From: an uncultured virus (IMG/VR IMGVR_UViG_2667527573_000005)
Taxonomy: Duplodnaviria; Heunggongvirae; Uroviricota; Caudoviricetes
Direction: 5' to 3' (one strand)
Virus record (IMG/VR): IMGVR_UViG_2667527573_000005
Coordinates: 62,001 to 126,000 of that record
Length of the DNA: 64,000 bases
Part shown: one piece after another, positions 5,325-62,529 of the stretch
How positions within the stretch are numbered: position 1 is the stretch's first letter
Layout of the letters: the number at the start of each line of letters is the position of its first letter
Position numbers and translations under genes: made by a program
Notes under the pieces: model-generated
Databases searched by the model: none
What the model was told of the DNA's origin: nothing
The model's input: the letters and a program-made list of their open reading frames with translations, nothing else

Positions 5325-5540
5325 CTAACGCTTTACGACTTGAATTTCCCTTACCTCACATTGCACATTACACTTCGTTTTAAGCTCACTTGCTACCTCG
5401 ATGACTTCTAACATATTATGCATTTTAGAAGCTTCATGGAGGTCGCTAGATGTCAAATAACCACTCTCATCTAATTTAAATGCTTTAAAGTATTCCTTGT
5501 TTTCAAACTGCAGTACATAAAAATAATCAATCAAAGGCAT
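5325..5540 (-). CDS. yopF: YopF-like hypothetical protein
   Basis: 71 aa, synteny. Confidence 0.7.
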   Translation of the reverse strand: MPLIDYFYVLQFENKEYFKAFKLDESGYLTSSDLHEASKMHNMLEVIEVASELKTKCNVQCEVREIQVVKR

Positions 5541-5543
5541 AAA

Positions 5544-5795
5544 TCAACCTCTTTTAAATAATTTTGTAATCCTCATTGCCAATGGCAGTAAACCAATTAA
5601 CATAAAAAAAGCAATCACATTAAGCTTATTTTTGAAAAACAGGCTGGCCAAATTCCTTTCCATGCCCGCTGCTGTTTCTTTATCCATGAGTTCTTTAAAC
5701 TCTTCATCATAGACCTGATCAACAAAAATAAACTTAATGCCGGTCAATAATCCAACTCCAAGCCAGATAATTAAAAAATAAGCTAATCCAATCAT
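5544..5795 (-). CDS. yopE: YopE-like membrane protein
   Basis: 83 aa, two TM segments, RBS GGGAGG, synteny. Confidence 0.7.
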   Translation of the reverse strand: MIGLAYFLIIWLGVGLLTGIKFIFVDQVYDEEFKELMDKETAAGMERNLASLFFKNKLNVIAFFMLIGLLPLAMRITKLFKRG

Positions 5796-5853: not shown

Positions 5854-6045
5854 GTGGGTGATCTTGTGGAAGAGAAGTTTGAAACAAACGGGTATGATAC
5901 TTCAATCGTTTATGATTACAAAGAATATCCAGATGTAAAATACGGACGCTGCGACAACTGTGATTACACACTGTTCAAAAGCTCTGTGAAGAGTGGAATA
6001 TTCTTGCGTGAATGCCGGCGTTGCGGTATGAAAAAGAGCATTTAG
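5854..6045 (+). CDS. Small zinc-ribbon protein
   Basis: CDNC...CRRC; followed by bidirectional terminator. Confidence 0.7.
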   Translation: MGDLVEEKFETNGYDTSIVYDYKEYPDVKYGRCDNCDYTLFKSSVKSGIFLRECRRCGMKKSI

Positions 6046-16769: not shown

Positions 16770-17021
16770 TTAGTGAGACTTGTTTCTTAGATTAAGGAAT
16801 ACAAAATAGATGATCCACAACAATATGGCAATGATACATGTGACTATGAATATTATATTGATTAGTGTTTGTGCTTCGCTGCTGAAGTAATCATTGATGA
16901 GCTGAAACATTAAGAATAAGCCAATGAAAGTGATATGAGTAAACCATAGTGAGAATCGTTTCATGTTTACAATGTGCTTGATCATGTTATAATATGGGTA
17001 GGAACTAAAGGAGAAGTTCAT
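16770..17021 (-). CDS. yoyJ: YoyJ small membrane protein
   Basis: 83 aa, two TM segments, directly after yonT. Confidence 0.75.
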   Translation of the reverse strand: MNFSFSSYPYYNMIKHIVNMKRFSLWFTHITFIGLFLMFQLINDYFSSEAQTLINIIFIVTCIIAILLWIIYFVFLNLRNKSH

Positions 17022-17105
17022 TCCCCTTTAGCTTAGCTCTCATCGGCGTATACGTTGGCGTTGTCTCTTTGGTCGGAGCCGCTTGCGTATACGCTTTTTC
17101 TTTTT
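17000..17105 (+). ncRNA. SR6-like antisense antitoxin RNA (ends approximate)
   Basis: TTTACA 16966-16971 / TG-n-TATAAT 16988-16993; overlaps yoyJ RBS and yonT 3' end; GCGTATACG/CGTATACGC stem then T-run. Confidence 0.75.
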
Positions 17106-19314: not shown

Positions 19315-21843
19315 TTGAAAGGAAAAAAAGACGGTCTTAATAAGCAAGTACATATTTACAGTATTGATACTTCTGCTTTTTATAATGATCAAGAAAACAA
19401 ATTACATAACAAGATTTTAAAATCATATAGGTACAGAGATTATCTCAAAAAACTTGAACATGTTGATAAAAAACATAAGAAGTACATAATGCAAAGGATT
19501 ATTTCCTTAAAAGAAAAGCTTTATAGCGCCTTTAACAATCATAATCAAATAAGAACACTTAGAACAGATTCCCTGAAAGATAATAATGTGATTTCATTAT
19601 TTGATTCAGTCTTAACTCGAACGTTGGGAATCAAAGAAAATTCTCTCTCTGAAGAGATCATGGTTGTCCAAACTTATCACTTTCAAATTTTAAGGGACAT
19701 TATTGATAAAGGATTCATACATAACAATGAGAAATACGTTTATTTCACTAGCAGTGCCGGTCAAATACGAACCAAAAAGTCTTGTTTTATCAAGCAAGGC
19801 ACCTTAGATAAGTATCAAAATGCTTTAACTAGTGGCCTTAGTGTGGAGCAAATCAATGCTCAAGGTGGGAGTAGCATAAACAAATGGAATAGCTACATGG
19901 CCTTATCGAATAGCGCCAGCAGTCCATGGGAGATTGATATTGATAAAGCAATTGTCGTAAATGACTTAGAAACAAACGTTTCCAGCCTGGTTGATTATAT
20001 TGACCGTGATACATATGAAATCACTCGTAAGATTATGGATATTCCTATAGAACATACAGATGGTTGCGGAATGATGCTTCCCAGTTTGAGCCAGAAAAGC
20101 TTTATGGTCAGATTACCTTGGGTTAAGGGTCTGCTAGTTCCATTTGATTTTAGAAAGTTTGCTGAAAAACACAGTTCATTTATAGTTAAGGACGTCTACG
20201 GTAAAGAATGGGACATTATTAAAGATGATATCCAAATAATTTTTACGAAAAGCCAGTTTAAGATGTGGAAGTACTATGATTCTTGGGATGATTATCGCTA
20301 TAAATTTAAAAAGTATGGATGTTTAGGAGCTAAATTAAATGAAGAAGATCCATCTGTTGAGGGAAAACTGACTTACCAGATGCTACAAACACTCACGGAT
20401 ATCACAGATGAGGAATTGAAACAAATCAGCTCAAAGACTGTTAGTGAGATTACTCAATTAGGCACTGATAAAGAAACAATGATGAAAGTTTTAGGGGCTA
20501 CCGAGAAAAATAAACATAAGACAAGCCTTCAAGAAGCTCTACTAATATATCCTGAGCTGCTAAATGATGACCATACCAAAGAAATCATTAAGAATAAGAA
20601 GAAGAGTATGATTAAGGACGCCAAATCAGGGAAATTACTTGTCAGTGACGCCAGGTATACATATTTATGTCCTGATCTATATGCTTTTTGTGAAAGACTG
20701 TTTCTTGGAATTGAGAATCCAAAAGGACTTCTCACCGGCAGCAATGTTTATTGTTCTTTATATGATGAAGGGCATATTGATATCCTCCGCTCCCCTCACC
20801 TATACAGAGAACATGGAGTTAGATGGAACAAGAAAGACGAGGAATATGATAAGTGGTTCATTACCCCAGGTGTTTATACCAGCATTCATGATCCTATATC
20901 CAAGCTGCTGCAGTTTGACAATGACGGGGATAAGGCCTTAATTATTTCTGATGAGCTAATCGTCAATATTGCCAAACGTAATATGGAGAACATCGTTCCT
21001 TTGTATTATGAAATGTCTGTAGCCCAGAAACAAGAGATTAATAGCAGAAACATCTATGAAGCACTAACTCTTGCTTATGGAATCAATATCGGGGAGTACA
21101 GTAACAATATCACTAAGATATGGAACAGTGACAATATAAACCTGGACGTGATCAAATGGTTATGCATGGAGAATAACTTTACTATCGATTTTGCAAAAAC
21201 CTTATTCATGCCCACCCGCCCTGATCACGTTGATGAGAAAATCAAAGACTACATAAAAAATAAAGTGCCCCATTTCTTCATCAGTGCAAAGGATAAAGAA
21301 GAACATAGCGTAGAGTTGATTAATGAAAGTACAGTAAATAAGTTAGACTCAATTATCCCTAATGACCGAATCAACTTTAACACAGTTGCTGGAAAATTTG
21401 ATTACCGTTTCTTACTCAAAAACAAAAAGGTGAAGCTAGATGAAGTATTAATAAATGAATATAAACTGCTTGACCGCAACAAAAAATGGCTTATGAATGA
21501 TGAAGATTTAAAACCTGGGCAAAAGCTTTATGTCTACAAGATTATAAAAGATAGATTAATGGATTTACATGACAATGAGCATTATATTACAGATGTTTTG
21601 GTAAAGCATCTATATAAGAAAAAGAGCAAATTTAAATCTACTTTGTGGGAATGTTTTGGAGAGGTTATTTTAGAAAATATACGGGACAATTTTAAAAATT
21701 TTAAAGCTTGTTATAGTTGTGGAAGTATGTATAAGTCAGCCTCAAATAAATCTAAATACTGCACTAAATGTGCTTTAGAAACTGAAAAAAAGAACCATCG
21801 AGTAAGACAAAAAAAATACAGCAAGAAGAAAATGACGAAATAG
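19315..21843 (+). CDS. yonO: YonO single-subunit DNA-dependent RNA polymerase
   Basis: [18 protein letters not shown] catalytic DxDGD; 842 aa; C-terminal CxxC..CxxC. Confidence 0.95.
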
Positions 21844-22096: not shown

Positions 22097-22372
22097 ATGA
22101 ACAAAACAGAATTTGTTGGAGCAGTTTCAGAAAAATTAGGTGTTACTAAGAAAGAAGCTACTCCTAAAGTTGAAGCAGTATTTAATGTCATCGTTGAAAC
22201 ACTAGCAAAAGGTGAATCAATCAAGATTCCTGGAGTTGGTACATTTGAAGTTCGTGAACGTGCAGCTCGTAAAGGGAGAAATATCCAAACTGGCGAGGAA
22301 ATCGAAATCCCTGCTTCAAAAGCAGTGAAATTTAAACCTGCAAAAGCTTTAAAAGATTCAGTCAAACAATAA
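22097..22372 (+). CDS. yonN: HU-family DNA-binding protein
   Basis: MNKTEF...IPGVGTFEVRERAARKGRNIQTGEEIEIPASKAVKFKPAKALKD. Confidence 0.95.
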   Translation: MNKTEFVGAVSEKLGVTKKEATPKVEAVFNVIVETLAKGESIKIPGVGTFEVRERAARKGRNIQTGEEIEIPASKAVKFKPAKALKDSVKQ

Positions 22373-22437: not shown

Positions 22438-23403
22438 ATGCTACTAATGCCATACGAAGAATACATTAAAGTCAACTTGTATTCCCATAGGAAAATTCCG
22501 TTTTCTTGTGACTATTGCAACAAGCGATTCTTTAGGAGAAAAATCAACCACACAAAAATCTCAAACAAAAATGACTGTCTCATTGAAAAAGACTGTTGTA
22601 AAGAATGTATCAAGTATAAAAATACTGAGGCATTGTTTAAAAGTTTAAACTGCCAAAATACTGACTTGATGATTAAACATATGGTAAATAAAAAAATAAA
22701 GACTTTATCTGGTGTGTATTCAATTAGAGATAAACAAAACAATAAGAAATATATAGGTTCTTCTAAAGACCTTGTTCAAAGGTTTAAAGCTCATCTTTTA
22801 GATATGAAAAATAAAGATCATCATATAAGTGAATTTAATTCCTTAGATCCAAAGCATCTTGAATTTAATATTATTGAATATGACACAGCTTTACCAGATT
22901 TAATAATCCGAGAATATCATTTTATTAACCTGTATAATTCTCATGATCCTCTTCATGGCTACAATACAATGCATACCAAAAGAAACACAGTAAGAAGTAC
23001 TTTAAAACCTTCTAAAAAAAGTATTGAAGCCAGACTCAATTCCTCAAAGTTTACACTTCAACAGATCAAATATATCAAAAAGGCACTTTATAATGGAGAA
23101 CGAATTAAAGATCTTGCACTTGAATTTAATTGTAAAGAAGCCACAATACATAGTATAAAAAGTTGCTCTACTTGGGAAAATGTTTTACCTGAATTGAATG
23201 AAAAACTAAGGAAATTAACATACGTTGGCATTCACAAAGGAGAAAATAATGCGTGTTCAAAACTAAATGAAACAATGGTTAAAGAAATAAAAACACTGAT
23301 TATTTCAGGACTCCCTCTGGTGACCATCGCTAAAAAATTCAACGTAAGCTCTACAACTATTGGACATATAAAAAGAGGTAAGCTATGGTCTCATGTAAGT
23401 TAA
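22438..23403 (+). CDS. Free-standing GIY-YIG homing endonuclease
   Basis: SGVYSI...KYIGSS...QRF..H; N-terminal Cys cluster; two C-terminal HTH-like repeats (IHSIK..TWENV, IGHIKRGKLWSHV). Confidence 0.85.
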   Translation: MLLMPYEEYIKVNLYSHRKIPFSCDYCNKRFFRRKINHTKISNKNDCLIEKDCCKECIKYKNTEALFKSLNCQNTDLMIKHMVNKKIKTLSGVYSIRDKQNNKKYIGSSKDLVQRFKAHLLDMKNKDHHISEFNSLDPKHLEFNIIEYDTALPDLIIREYHFINLYNSHDPLHGYNTMHTKRNTVRSTLKPSKKSIEARLNSSKFTLQQIKYIKKALYNGERIKDLALEFNCKEATIHSIKSCSTWENVLPELNEKLRKLTYVGIHKGENNACSKLNETMVKEIKTLIISGLPLVTIAKKFNVSSTTIGHIKRGKLWSHVS

Positions 23404-23447
23404 AGCAGTGAAAGCTTAATGTAGTATCCTTACTCCCTTTTCCCTAG

Positions 23448-23584
23448 AATGCGGTGGCGAAAAAGGTAAACGCGTAGATCGAGGTGGTATGACTGACCTT
23501 CGGGAATCTCGAGGCCAACCTTCAAGGAAAGACTAATAGTTGGCGAATTGTCATCCATGAGAGGTGCAAATCCTCTCCCGCATT
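23448..23584 (+). ncRNA. tRNA-like RNA with ~84-nt branched insert replacing the anticodon arm
   Basis: Acceptor AATGCGG/CCGCATT, U8G9, D arm GCG-AAAAAGGTAAA-CGC, T arm GAGAGG-TGCAAAT-CCTCTC. Confidence 0.6.
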
Positions 23585-23594
23585 TCATCTCCAG

Positions 23595-24500
23595 GTTTAT
23601 TAATTAGAGTTCTTTATTGATGGCATGGGGATGCCGTCAATAATTAGTTGATTACTGATATTTGGGATATCAGTTCTCGACTAATGTTCATTTATTAAGG
23701 TAAAGACTAATCTAAATGAATATTAGTGGAGATTCCTCTCCAGTGTGGACTAGCTTTTCTTGATTAAACAATATCTACTCCCCTATTTTCTGTATCATTC
23801 TGACTCAAACTGCGGTTGGTCATTGTAGTTAGTCGGATAATGGTCATTTATGAGGATGCGAGGTTAACTCGGATGTCTGTATCTAAAGGAGACAGGTAAA
23901 TGACTATTATCGGGCTAAACATGTTGGTAAGACCTATGCTACTCAAGCTGAAAAATTGCTGTTTTGTAGGGTGAATCCCATCACAGTCTTACTATGGGTG
24001 ACATGTAGCCTGAATATTAATTGCGGTGTAATGCTTCGGCTTGCACTTAGGTAAGGTAGATGCGTCTCCCTTCCCTTTAAATAATGCCCTTGTAAGCTTT
24101 GATGCTTATTATGCGGCCACATAAAAATTTTTCCGGGTTAGCGAGTCTTCTATACTCGTAAAATAAGTGAAATAGTGTTTGGGCGCTTGATCACCGCTCT
24201 CATTTCACAGAAAAGGATTATTTTCGGTCTTGTCTTTTCATTTTCACTTAGGAACATATTCACTATTTATTCGCTACTTCTCCTTCAATGTTCTGAATGG
24301 AGACTTACCTTTCCCATGCACATACCTCCTTACACGGGTCAGAGAAAACTGTGCAAAATAAATGGCGAGCGTTTGAGACGCTTTGTTTCTCAATAAGGCG
24401 TGTAACCTGACAAGAGAGACTGAAAATGCCATTGAGAAGGCTTATAATGGGTCTTTACTTCTCAACCATATAAAATAAGCCGCCCATGAAAGACGGCTTA
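23595..24500 (+). ncRNA. Candidate large highly structured non-coding RNA
   Basis: No RBS-supported ORF; many nested helices (up to 15 bp) whose mismatches are G-U on the plus strand. Confidence 0.6.
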
Positions 24501-24551
24501 ATCTTACAAGTTCAGTTAATATTATTTTAAATATTTTTTAGGAGGAATGAA

Positions 24552-24728
24552 ATGAAAATTGAAATTTTCACTAACAGACTATTCCTGGGTTGTTTTGACG
24601 CTGAAGATTTTTTTCTAAGCAATGAATCTCTTGCGGTTGGTACAATTATTCAGATTGCAGATAAAGATTACTGTATAGTAACAATCTCTATAATTGAACC
24701 TTCCAAGATGTTGATAGAGGTCTGTTAA
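24552..24728 (+). CDS. Small hypothetical protein (58 aa)
   Basis: RBS AGGAGG; MKIEIFTNRLFLGCFDAEDFF...LIEVC. Confidence 0.6.
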   Translation: MKIEIFTNRLFLGCFDAEDFFLSNESLAVGTIIQIADKDYCIVTISIIEPSKMLIEVC

Positions 24729-25079: not shown

Positions 25080-25271
25080 ATGGCAAGCAAAAAAGTGCAT
25101 CAAATTAATGTTAAAGGCTTTTTCGATATGGACGTAATGGAAGTTACTGAACAAACTAAAGAAGCTGAATATACATATGACTTCAAAGAAATTCTTTCAG
25201 AGTTTAATGGAAAGAATGTTTCAATTACTGTAAAAGAAGAAAATGAACTTCCTGTTAAAGACGTTGAGTAA
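25080..25271 (+). CDS. yonK: YonK protein
   Basis: MASKKVHQINVKGFFDMDVMEVTEQTKE; 63 aa; RBS GGAGG. Confidence 0.88.
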   Translation: MASKKVHQINVKGFFDMDVMEVTEQTKEAEYTYDFKEILSEFNGKNVSITVKEENELPVKDVE

Positions 25272-25287
25272 GGCGGTGACTGACTGA

Positions 25288-26505
25288 ATGATCGATCCTG
25301 TTCAAACTAAGCGTCACTCAGATGAAAACCTTAAAGAATGGAAAATAAGAATCTGCTCTAATAAAGACATTTATAATCTAAACTGGGAAGAAATCAAAGA
25401 GTTAATCAACAAGGAAACCGGCGAATCTAAAGGTGAATCAGCTTATAGAAAATGGTTCAACAACTTCATTGAGGGGGTTGAATACCAAAAAGAAAAGTCA
25501 GCTGAATCAAATAATTCTCTCCTTGAATTGGAACTGAAAAAGGTTGAAATCATGGAAGAGAGAAAAAAGCTTCAAGCTGTAAAGCATGAAATACATAAAA
25601 ATACACGTGTCAAAGGTCGAACAGAGCTTCTATATGAAAATGTAACTGAAGCAATTGAGAAAGTAGGTACTCTCCCTCCCCCTTCCTTCTATCCGTTAAA
25701 TAAGAGCGAAAGAAAAAGAGCTGCTGTTCTAGGGTTTGGAGATGAACACTTCGGGAAGCAATTTAAAAGCAACAACAATGAATACAACGAACAGATTTAT
25801 TTGCAGCGTATGAATCAGATTCTTTCTGAAACTGTTGAGTACATTCAAAAAGAAAATTTAGATGAGCTGGTCGTGTTAAATGGTGCTGACAGTGTTGAAG
25901 GTATGGCATTGCGCGTATCGCAATTAACTGCCCTTCAGTACGGTTTTATTGACCAAGTGATTAAATACTCTAGGTACAAAGCTGAATGGCTTTTAGAGCT
26001 TTCTAAGCACGTCAAAATTAAGTACATACATATCCCTTCTGCAAATCATACTGAACTAAGATTACATAATACAAATCGCTCGGAAATGCCTAAAGAAGAT
26101 GTAGAGCGTATTATCGCTACTTATATCCATGACGTACTCAAAGACAATGAGCGAATTGAAGTTCCTTTATACGACGAAGGAATTGTGGATTTTAAATTAC
26201 TTGAATTTGAAATTGTTGCTTGTCACGGACACCAGATTAAAAACAAAAAGAATGCCATTCGTGACATCTCACAGATGAAACGAAAATTCTACGATTACAT
26301 GTACATCTCCCACTTCCACCACGGGAATATGCTTACTGTAGGTGAAGCAGCCACTCATAATATCCAGGTAATACAACTTCCTTCTGTTATGGGTTCCGAT
26401 GAATACAGTGACAGCTTAATGACAGGTGCAAAAGCTGGAGCAAACCTATCAATTTATGAGTCTGGCAAAGGTCGGACTATTCAGTACGATTACATATTGA
26501 ATTAA
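25288..26505 (+). CDS. yonJ: YonJ metallophosphoesterase (calcineurin-like) with N-terminal helical domain
   Basis: GDEHFG, GADSVEG, ANH, CHGH, SHFHH; 405 aa. Confidence 0.85.
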   Translation: MIDPVQTKRHSDENLKEWKIRICSNKDIYNLNWEEIKELINKETGESKGESAYRKWFNNFIEGVEYQKEKSAESNNSLLELELKKVEIMEERKKLQAVKHEIHKNTRVKGRTELLYENVTEAIEKVGTLPPPSFYPLNKSERKRAAVLGFGDEHFGKQFKSNNNEYNEQIYLQRMNQILSETVEYIQKENLDELVVLNGADSVEGMALRVSQLTALQYGFIDQVIKYSRYKAEWLLELSKHVKIKYIHIPSANHTELRLHNTNRSEMPKEDVERIIATYIHDVLKDNERIEVPLYDEGIVDFKLLEFEIVACHGHQIKNKKNAIRDISQMKRKFYDYMYISHFHHGNMLTVGEAATHNIQVIQLPSVMGSDEYSDSLMTGAKAGANLSIYESGKGRTIQYDYILN

Positions 26506-61413: not shown

Positions 61414-62529
61414 ATGAGTAAGATCGCTTCTGAAGTTGTCGCTACTACACTGAATGACTGGTACATTGCTATAAAAAAACAAAAGGTTGATGAATCAATA
61501 AAATATTATTCAGAGATAAAAAAACTTTTTGATGAAATGGAAGAAGATCAAGAAGTTCTTGCGTATTATAGTCTATTAGAAGAAAGACATAAAATGTTGC
61601 TGCATTCTTCACGAGGAGAGCCTTTACAAAAGCACACCTATTTTACTGAAGACAATCAAAACTTCATAAAAAAAACAAATGATAAATTAGAATACAACTT
61701 TTATTTATTTGAAGCAATGTACGAGGCATACAACAAAAACTATGATCGAGCAATTAACCTATATGGATTAGCTGAGAAAAAGCTTGCAGAAATTCCAGAT
61801 GAAATTGAAGCAGCTGAATTTTACTCTAAAGTCTCTTACTTATATACTCTTGTTAAACAAAGCATTGTGGCACAACATTATATAAAAAATGCAATTTCAA
61901 TATATAAGCGACACCCTGATTATAAATGCAAACTAGCTACATCAACAATGATTGCAGCTGCAAACTATGCTGATATGAAACGATTTGAGGAAGCAGAAAA
62001 ATATTACTTAGAAGCAATTGATATTGCAAAAGAAACAAAAGACGAATTTTTGAAAGCTCAATTACTTCACAATCTTAGCATCGTATATTCTGATTGGAAC
62101 AAACCTGATAAATGCATTGAATCTCTTGAAAAAGCAATAGGAAATGAATCTTGGTTACATTCGATTTATTATATAAATTCTTTATTCATGATGATTAAAG
62201 AACTCTTTAAAATTGACGAAAAAATGAAAGCCATTAATTTTTACAATAAAGCACAGGAAAGACTCATATTAATGGAGAATAAAGTATACGAAGCCAAAAT
62301 CAGCATCCTGTATAACCTTTATTGTGGGGAGTTAAAAAATAATTTCAATAATTGTATTAGTAATATTGAGTTTTTAAAACAGCAAAATGAACTTGAAAGT
62401 GTAGATGAATTGTCCTACATAGCTGCAAAAAGGTTTGAATCAATAGGTGCTTTTGAAGAAGCAACGAGCTTTTTCAATGCGAAAATTTGGGCTGAACAGA
62501 AAATGAATCAGGTGGAGGGAATCTTATGA
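61414..62529 (+). CDS. rapK: Rap-family TPR regulator RapK
   Basis: MSKIASEVVATTLNDWY...MEEDQEVLAYYSLL; 371 aa; matches recalled B. subtilis RapK. Confidence 0.88.
   Translation: MSKIASEVVATTLNDWYIAIKKQKVDESIKYYSEIKKLFDEMEEDQEVLAYYSLLEERHKMLLHSSRGEPLQKHTYFTEDNQNFIKKTNDKLEYNFYLFEAMYEAYNKNYDRAINLYGLAEKKLAEIPDEIEAAEFYSKVSYLYTLVKQSIVAQHYIKNAISIYKRHPDYKCKLATSTMIAAANYADMKRFEEAEKYYLEAIDIAKETKDEFLKAQLLHNLSIVYSDWNKPDKCIESLEKAIGNESWLHSIYYINSLFMMIKELFKIDEKMKAINFYNKAQERLILMENKVYEAKISILYNLYCGELKNNFNNCISNIEFLKQQNELESVDELSYIAAKRFESIGAFEEATSFFNAKIWAEQKMNQVEGIL

Follow-up and report, generated by a model that had tools for sequence, protein, structure and literature searches.

A chain of folded RNA modules in the yonN-yonK gap of an SPbeta-like phage includes an orphan copy from a family of RNAs linked to AbiD genes

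The stretch of DNA analysed here (the window; 64,000 nucleotides (nt), positions 62,001 to 126,000 of IMG/VR record IMGVR_UViG_2667527573_000005) is part of a 127-kb, 99% complete provirus record of an SPbeta-like phage. Its open reading frames (ORFs) follow the order of SPbeta, with yonO (19315-21843), the HU-type yonN (22097-22372), yonK (25080-25271; its product matches Pfam YonK) and yonJ (25288-26505), and the gap between yonN and yonK holds a ~0.9-kb folded stretch ahead of the late genes. We report here that this gap serves as a long non-coding leader to the late operon transcribed by YonO, that the leader consists of folded RNA modules which lie in series on the plus strand and have evolved separately, and that its central module, a 68-nt unit of two hairpins (H12; 24019..24086, plus strand), belongs to a family of non-coding RNAs (ncRNAs) linked to AbiD genes, which encode HEPN abortive-infection toxins of the Pfam family Abi_2. 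A first-pass annotation, made from the letters of the window alone, had taken the region for non-coding, and this was borne out by comparison with close relatives, in which the five ORFs of 32-73 codons are disrupted by stops or frameshifts; a conserved ORF is absent from 23404-24551. One minus-strand ORF (24274-24432) is open in six of eight relatives, but it lies inside a conserved RNA domain (module F, below). A coding role of the region was thus rejected.

To place the leader relative to the late transcript, we made use of the YonO-dependent start site published at position 2225998 by Forrest et al. (2017), whose accessible text also mentions 'an unannotated non-coding RNA' between that site and yonK. 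The SPBc2 gap recurs with 100% identity at 2225616-2227296 of a genome reached via a lysogen (G041), and there the decamer GTCGGATAAT occupies 2225991-2226000; on the assumption of one coordinate system common to the paper and G041, the published start is the eighth base of this decamer (the A of GTCGGAT[A]AT) and maps to window position 23839. The primers of Forrest et al. bracket this position, the forward primer corresponding to window 23718-23741 and the extension primer annealing 94-120 nt downstream. In the window, GTCGGATAAT (23832..23841, plus strand) is a candidate YonO promoter core or initial transcribed sequence. Conservation sets in abruptly at (A/G)GTCGGATAAT in 37 distinct relatives, with upstream sequence unrelated between phage groups; this set was selected for containing GTCGGATAAT, so that the invariance of the decamer is partly by construction, and the same abrupt onset was seen in an nhmmer-anchored alignment of 22 sequences. 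Of 24 sequencing runs, four were compared with the SPBc2-type stretch: reads numbered 0 in one raw RNA run and 2 in a Ribo-seq run, and two contig sets cover the stretch in 22-26 kb pieces, where RNA and DNA are indistinguishable.

The published start agrees with the first-pass placement of a plus-strand transcript at the head of the late region. It does not agree with a single transcript unit beginning at 23595, as ~240 nt of that unit (23596-23838) lie upstream of the start, nor was the RNA wholly undescribed, given the mention in Forrest et al., although it has no counterpart in Rfam 15. Because the start maps to 23839, three near-perfect plus-strand hairpins (23614-23643, 23654-23674 and 23680-23727) fall upstream of it. 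They make up module A (23584-23730), which is limited to the SPbeta group and conserved within it; four of its 44 predicted pairs covary. The third of these hairpins shares the TAATGnTCATTTA arm with the start-site hairpin and carries CTCGACTAAT where the latter has GTCGGATAAT. As a deletion in relative L014 fuses the 5′ arm of 23680-23727 with the 3′ arm of the start-site helix, we regard the two as paralogues, and they could reflect a hairpin-associated YonO promoter or a second start.

Folding of 23585-24505 was better than that of 20 dinucleotide shuffles on both strands (plus strand, -260 versus -225.8 ± 5.6 kcal/mol, z -6.1; minus strand, -229.6 versus -198.4 ± 5.7 kcal/mol, z -5.5), and because both strands beat the shuffles, the strand was not chosen by folding energy alone. 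Across four alignments of relatives, however, G.U outnumbered A.C among paired cells (161 v 37, 46 v 25, 48 v 10 and 37 v 1), so that the first-pass remark that mismatches are mostly G-U on the plus strand holds beyond the window, and a reading of the helices as DNA palindromes is disfavoured by the same counts. Covariation together with the G.U excess identifies the plus strand as the RNA strand. Covariation counts given here are counts of cells rather than of independent events, the aligned sequences being related. No Rfam 15 family relevant to the region was found in a gathering-level scan of the whole window or in a scan of 23300-24700 at E<=10, where the best weak match reached 23.4 bits against a gathering score of 60.

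All eleven helices of the first-pass annotation are present in the sequence: the ten with equal arms are Watson-Crick or G.T at every position, four of them with one G.T each on the plus strand, and the one with unequal arms (23912-23933/23986-24011) was recovered as helices P2-P4 of a covarying 5′ domain. Their conservation differs. Comparative support was obtained for 23836-50/23897-911, for the multibranch structure at 23912-24011 and for 24330-36/24399-405, with conserved covarying pairs in the 5′ domain, H12 and module F, whereas four long-range helices are unconserved and replaced by local hairpins. Two of the latter (24049-55/24304-10 and 24064-69/24299-304) share bases with the local hairpin 24049-24056/24069-24076, which covaries strongly, and SPBc2 has lost part of their 3′ partner; where relatives carry substitutions, pairing is restored in this local stem (hairpin 2 of H12) but not in the long-range helices. 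For the other two (24139-46/24269-76 and 24164-72/24242-50), the consensus fold has local hairpins instead, and the 3′ partners are deleted in some relatives.

The late transcript begins within module C (23823-24067), which is present in all groups of relatives and whose 5′ domain spans 23836-24011. The start itself lies inside a conserved 15-bp helix, P1 (23836-23850/23897-23911, plus strand), which encloses two small hairpins and forms the 5′ end of the transcript; 98.2% of its cells are paired, two pairs are changed on both sides, and its G.U variants lie on the plus strand. P1 is followed by a pseudoknot domain (23912-24011, plus strand) comprising P2 (23912-15/24008-11), P3 (23919-26/23999-24006; three covarying pairs), P4 (23927-33/23986-92; two covarying pairs), P7 (23971-74/23981-84; three covarying pairs) and a 4-bp pseudoknot between 23977-80 and 23995-98. 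The latter is 100% paired, its one compensatory pair, found in five sequences, probably representing a single event. Over the whole 5′ domain (alignment A3; 37 sequences, 57 pairs), 93.9% of cells are paired as compared to 35-45% with partners slid, and 15 of the 57 pairs are changed on both sides, a count that 8 of 500 shuffles reach.

The distribution of modules, established by BLAST and nhmmer against 55 loci, is that of a mosaic, as relatives carry differing subsets: C without F, F without H12, or C joined directly to F. Module D (24068-24310 by its distribution among relatives; 24087-24298 beyond the end of H12; plus strand) is a variable insert of local hairpins that is absent from Bacillus pumilus-type prophages, in which C abuts F, and partly present elsewhere; it shows little diversity and many indels, and 3 of its 42 predicted pairs covary. 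Module F (24311-24470) occurs in the SPbeta and pumilus types, in SIOphi-type Herelleviridae, inside a 1.5-kb gap that precedes their portal operon, and in a third phage group, there without other modules and between a repressor-like gene and genes of unassigned function. In glycinifermentans/licheniformis-type relatives, C is followed by an ORF, without F. To the right of F, a strong terminator-like hairpin (24476..24500) was called by a terminator scan on the minus strand, where its T-run lies and where it has weak Rfam matches to terminator parts; it is lineage-specific, being absent at the corresponding place in SPBc2, and the genes to its right are on the plus strand.

The helices of F span 24318-24465 on the plus strand and include Fa (24318-22/24350-54), which shows four pair types across phage groups, Fb (24330-36/24399-405), which crosses Fa to form a pseudoknot, Fd (24373-78/24388-93) and Ff (24432-40/24457-65); a sixth helix, Fg, is weak (70.6% paired). 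For the domain as a whole (alignment A4; 22 distinct sequences, 34 pairs), 88.7% of cells are paired versus 30-56% with partners slid, and 16 of 34 pairs are changed on both sides, which none of 500 shuffles reaches. Between the strands of Fa and Fb, the word ACCUCC (24324-24329; in its longer form, ACCUCC(UUA), ACCUCCUUA at 24324-24332) is exposed, and we take it to resemble the anti-Shine-Dalgarno 3′ end of 16S rRNA. In one member of the third phage group (L053; G008:C43, reverse complement of ~1470-1640), the helix is permuted, with the partner of the F strand UUACACG upstream instead of downstream, and Fd is a shorter hairpin; the related L191 and L194 keep the usual helix order. When a model of the F domain (R2) was run against 151 genomes of a lysogen's order, only lysogen G001 matched and a bacterial partner gene was not found. 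The modules other than H12 are genuine structured RNA; they may stabilise or scaffold the transcript, or act as further decoys of the kind considered below.

Between the 5′ domain and module D lies H12. Its hairpin 1 (24025-24047, plus strand) has a UUCG loop and is preceded by AAUUGCG on its 5′ side; hairpin 2 (24049-24076, plus strand; stem 24049-56/24069-76) ends in the apical sequence GA[UGCG]UC and is followed by a U-rich tail. A pattern search for hairpin 1 returned 47 viral and 31 metagenome loci, about half of the metagenome matches being GC-rich chance hits, and a filter on the downstream word GATGC[G/T]TC kept 60 sequences, 46 of them distinct. The search pattern was drawn from hairpin 1, which is therefore invariant by construction, and hairpin 2 provides the independent evidence: 86.4% of H12 cells are paired as compared to 41-60% with partners slid, and eight of the nine pairs of hairpin 2 are changed on both sides. 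Throughout the set, the apical GA[UGCG]UC is invariant, a U-rich tail is usual and both hairpins carry UNCG-type tetraloops, and the copy in the window retains all invariant positions. In a degenerate copy (L147), both loops are mutated.

Several further features of H12 copies were observed. In many of them, a six-codon mini-ORF starts at an AUG in the hairpin 2 loop and ends in UAA (24061-24081 in the window, encoding MRLPSL; elsewhere MRLTFF, MRPIFF or MRLVLF). Because every nucleotide of its second codon is invariant and the preceding stem is not kept Shine-Dalgarno-like, we read this conservation as acting on the RNA, and regard the mini-ORF as a probable by-product of RNA constraints rather than as coding. 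In large phages (viral and metagenome contigs L068, L108, L111 and L096), H12 stands at the head of tRNA gene arrays and close to skipping-rope and cow-rumen-3 RNAs. In SIOphi-type phages, G-rich repeats resembling TTAGGG stand in front of it. In Herelleviridae copies (L056, 5899-5907 and ~6004-6012), the 5′ strand of hairpin 2, UAAGGAGGU, is a perfect 9-nt complement of ACCUCCUUA in F, and judging from this complementarity the local hairpin and the long-range pairing may alternate there.

H12 is also found outside such leaders. Stand-alone copies adjoin Pfam Abi_2 genes in three loci (L141, L134 and L104), and the Abi_2 proteins beside H12 match PADLOC AbiD. Homologues of the L141 protein, with 48-96% identity, were present in 9 of 401 genomes of a lysogen's order; in eight of these nine genomes an H12 model (R1) matched ~50 nt past the stop codon on the same strand, the ninth containing an N-terminal fragment only (residues 4-94). 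In Enterococcus and Streptococcus plasmid, satellite phage and prophage loci, whose protein is 35-47% identical, H12 was likewise placed in five of five loci fetched, at scores falling from 71 to 23 bits. Linked copies share a conserved promoter of sigma-A type (-35, 17 nt, -10) that ends ~10 nt before AAUWGCGG, and because of this promoter ahead of the unit we consider stand-alone H12 to be a gene for a ~70-nt small RNA, equipped with a promoter and a terminator of its own. A covariance model (R3) built from 13 AbiD-linked copies only (alignment A7; 96.7% paired, 10 of 21 pairs changed on both sides) recovered window 24019-24086 with 60.8 bits (E 2e-16) as its single match in the 64-kb window, and other phage copies with 50.7-74.2 bits. 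This places the central module of the phage leader in the AbiD-linked RNA family.

The phage copy lacks the partners of its stand-alone relatives. It sits 180 nt inside the late leader, without a convincing -35/-10 in front and without an Abi_2 gene in the phage record; indeed, PF07751 (Abi_2) was found in none of one phage record, five lysogen genomes and five viral records (two Herelleviridae, three others), in a survey whose control set was positive in 2 of 14 genomes. As neither an Abi_2 gene nor a promoter of its own was found, we class phage H12 as an orphan copy. Orphan lineages comprise the SPbeta type, the B. pumilus and glycinifermentans/licheniformis types, SIOphi-type Herelleviridae and large phages with tRNA arrays. 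On the bacterial side, model R1 had matches in 10 of 91 genomes of the family, most of them SPbeta-like prophages; two matches lie within a 571-codon ORF and are spurious, a third is weak and covers the terminator only, and a linked AbiD-H12 pair is present in one of the 91 (G078). A metagenome copy (L135) has an AbiD-type promoter and stands between the 3′ end of gyrA and a flavin reductase gene; it possibly represents an orphan on a bacterial chromosome.

Other features of the window lie outside the mapped leader transcript. A 321-codon ORF between yonN and the leader (22438-23403), without counterpart in SPBc2, encodes a GIY-YIG nuclease domain and a C-terminal helix-turn-helix (HTH) and appears to be a homing endonuclease; the annotation of phage BUCT083 places a GIY-YIG gene between two yonO pieces. 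Downstream of this ORF, the stretch 23420-23600 contains D-arm-like and T-arm-like parts with paired ends, and recurs in a B. pumilus-type prophage (L006, ~5425-5575), there downstream of the leader. It folds no better than shuffles (z 0.30), and ARAGORN found no tRNA in the window or in seven loci. The only gathering-level Rfam match in the window is the SR6 antitoxin RNA (RF02892, 128 bits, 17002-17105); the type I toxin-antitoxin pair yonT/SR6 is expected in an SPbeta-like phage.

What might an orphan AbiD-linked RNA do at the head of a late operon? We favour the reading, outside the options offered by the first-pass annotation, that the central module is an RNA of antitoxin type. As for its function, we see about an even chance that it serves as an antitoxin decoy. 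YonO, transcribing the leader from 23839, would produce late transcripts that carry H12 in bulk; H12 in this RNA would mimic the linked antitoxin RNA and hold a host AbiD-type toxin bound and inactive, and the toxin would thus be kept off until the phage cycle is complete. We infer that the linked RNA would, by analogy with characterised systems, be the antitoxin to AbiD proteins of this subfamily, that its phage copy would bind the toxin and that hosts of this phage would carry the cognate toxin.

The analogy draws on AbiF. According to the accessible part of the preprint by Saunier et al., AbiF of a Clostridioides difficile prophage is toxic and is neutralised in cis and in trans by an upstream ncRNA, RCd22, which has two hairpin abiF motifs, a terminator and a sigma-A promoter and binds AbiF; as far as the accessible sources describe it, Prevotellaceae AbiF is likewise neutralised by an ncRNA, and the complex has been solved (PMC12737573, PMC13064643). 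Like H12, these RNAs (AbiFr of Prevotellaceae; RCd22 of C. difficile phi027) consist of two stable hairpins and a terminator, possess a sigma-A promoter and are encoded beside an Abi_2 HEPN toxin gene, often on prophages or plasmids, as type III-like toxin-antitoxin pairs. Unlike them, H12 lies downstream of the gene, has no match to RF03085 and carries UNCG-type loops with the invariant GAUGCGUC, and the copy in the window has no adjoining toxin gene.

Phage-borne RNAs directed at such toxins have precedents. Phages are described as escaping ToxIN by RNA antitoxin mimics (PMC13064643, in the part accessible), and the pseudo-ToxI of PhiTE is one such mimic, proposed to hold the toxin inactive during infection (PMC3475682, likewise). 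Like H12 in the window, pseudo-ToxI is a phage-borne homologue of a host antitoxin RNA in a phage without the toxin gene. The PhiTE mimics are said to be escape mutants under selection, made of 36-nt repeats, whereas H12 in the window is a fixed, conserved part of a late-operon leader in several wild phage lineages, its decoy activity being putative. A second precedent is a hairpin in the cos region of phage sk1 that inhibits AbiF (Rince 2000; Zilberzwige-Tal 2025, both as cited in PMC13064643). As with phage H12, this hairpin lies near the packaging or late region; its target is an AbiD/F-family toxin, as proposed here for H12. It is described in that source, as far as accessible, as unlike the AbiF ncRNA, in contrast to H12 of the window, which is a clear homologue of the linked ncRNA by its R3 score.

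Several observations weigh against the decoy reading. The antitoxin role of the H12 class is drawn solely by analogy from systems with an upstream ncRNA and the Rfam abiF motif, whereas H12 stands downstream of the AbiD gene, except in L104, where it is upstream of the Abi_2 ORF; the abiF motif (RF03085) was found neither in the window, nor in stand-alone loci (E<=0.1), nor in 11 AbiD loci (E<=1). No cognate toxin turned up among probable hosts of the phage: three of 49 genomes of the genus of G001 have Abi_2, none with H12 beside it (best score 10.6 bits), in a host survey of single genomes per species that undersamples strain-level defence islands. The metagenome copy behind gyrA has no Abi_2 gene in the adjoining 1.8 kb examined. 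Finally, hairpin 2 of the window H12 contains a U.C mismatch, and this hairpin together with its U-tail would equally make a terminator or attenuator of the ordinary kind.

This last possibility leads to a different account of the leader, in which hairpin 2 and the U-tail stop most transcripts and the surrounding structures, or a bound phage factor, allow read-through into the 35-kb late operon, comparable to put, nut or EAR. In line with this, H12 in most copies ends with a stable stem and a U-rich tail, acts as the end of the small RNA in stand-alone genes, and in phages stands at the head of long operons or tRNA arrays; like put (HK022) and EAR (B. subtilis), it consists of two promoter-proximal hairpins of ~70 nt. 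Unlike them, however, H12 has no sequence match and no match to an Rfam antitermination family, and also occurs as a stand-alone, terminated gene beside AbiD, a tight linkage that attenuation leaves unexplained. H12 and F are moreover used with unrelated polymerases, the SPbeta-like YonO on the one hand and those of Herelleviridae on the other, where YonO was found in none of four records in a search without a positive control. The tail, too, is weak in the window (UUUAAAUAAU) and absent in phage copies L108, L111 and L020. We therefore judge an attenuator unlikely, as we do the related first-pass proposal of a YonO cofactor or antiterminator, given the occurrence of H12 and F in Herelleviridae and of H12 as small RNA genes beside AbiD.

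A good deal of scepticism is due to two further accounts. One regards the 5′ hairpin and the compact domains as armour that shields the long late mRNA from 5′-end-dependent decay by RNase J1 and RNase Y, without specific partners. Stabilisers at the 5′ end occur in B. subtilis and its phages, the transcript begins within the conserved 15-bp helix, and UNCG-type tetraloops cap both hairpins of H12; yet stability requires no invariant loop or single-strand sequences (AAUUGCGGUG, GAUGCGUC, UACCUCCUUACAC) shared across unrelated phages, and the AbiD linkage again finds no explanation, which makes this account quite improbable. To the same low degree, the whole leader might be an anti-defence RNA array, in which the YonO transcript would string together several decoys, the AbiD mimic being the first recognised, with the 5′ domain and F (ACCUCCUUA) mimicking or sponging other RNA-binding defences or Shine-Dalgarno-directed factors and the modules being shuffled as cassettes between unrelated Bacillus phages.

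Less probable still, H12 might be a remnant of an ancestral complete AbiD system for superinfection exclusion that lost its toxin gene and whose RNA gene is decaying. AbiD/F systems are indeed often carried by prophages and satellites (Saunier et al., in the accessible text), and one viral contig (L104) has H12 next to an Abi_2 gene and a YolD-like gene; but Abi_2 was in none of the phage, lysogen and viral records searched, orphan copies with compensated hairpin 2 and invariant loops persist in at least five phage lineages, and what decay looks like can be seen in the degenerate copy L147, so that we consider a remnant very unlikely. A packaging site or packaging RNA, the latter suggested in the first-pass annotation, was rejected, since the pac site of SPbeta-like phages is mapped elsewhere, between yonR and yonP, according to the accessible part of its source. 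Hardly tenable is the first-pass notion of one large ~0.9-kb ornate RNA folding and working as a unit in the manner of GOLLD or ROOL, which, like the leader, are phage-borne and non-coding with several covarying helices and pseudoknots (some H12 relatives also lying near tRNA genes): structure is dense throughout with a folding energy far below that of shuffles, and two pseudoknotted domains covary, but the modules are separable and occur in different subsets in relatives, the helices joining them are unconserved, transcription starts downstream of the first 240 nt, and neither GOLLD, ROOL nor any other Rfam family matches.

The present analysis gives an anatomy to the leader mentioned as an 'unannotated non-coding RNA' of SPbeta and pins the YonO start to the invariant GTCGGATAAT at the foot of a conserved hairpin, a lead for the YonO promoter, which is left undefined in the accessible text of the 2017 paper. 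The literature searched contained no description of the H12 motif or of orphan AbiD/F RNAs in phages; preprint supplements, which lay outside this search, may bear on its novelty. H12 represents an RNA class absent from Rfam 15 that is found beside a single branch of the Cas13-related AbiD/F toxins; the known abiF RNAs lie on the other side of the gene. An orphan copy of H12 is part of the late-operon leader in several lineages of wild Bacillus phages, among them the SPbeta model group. If this copy is a decoy, it would constitute a naturally fixed RNA counter-defence against AbiD/F systems.

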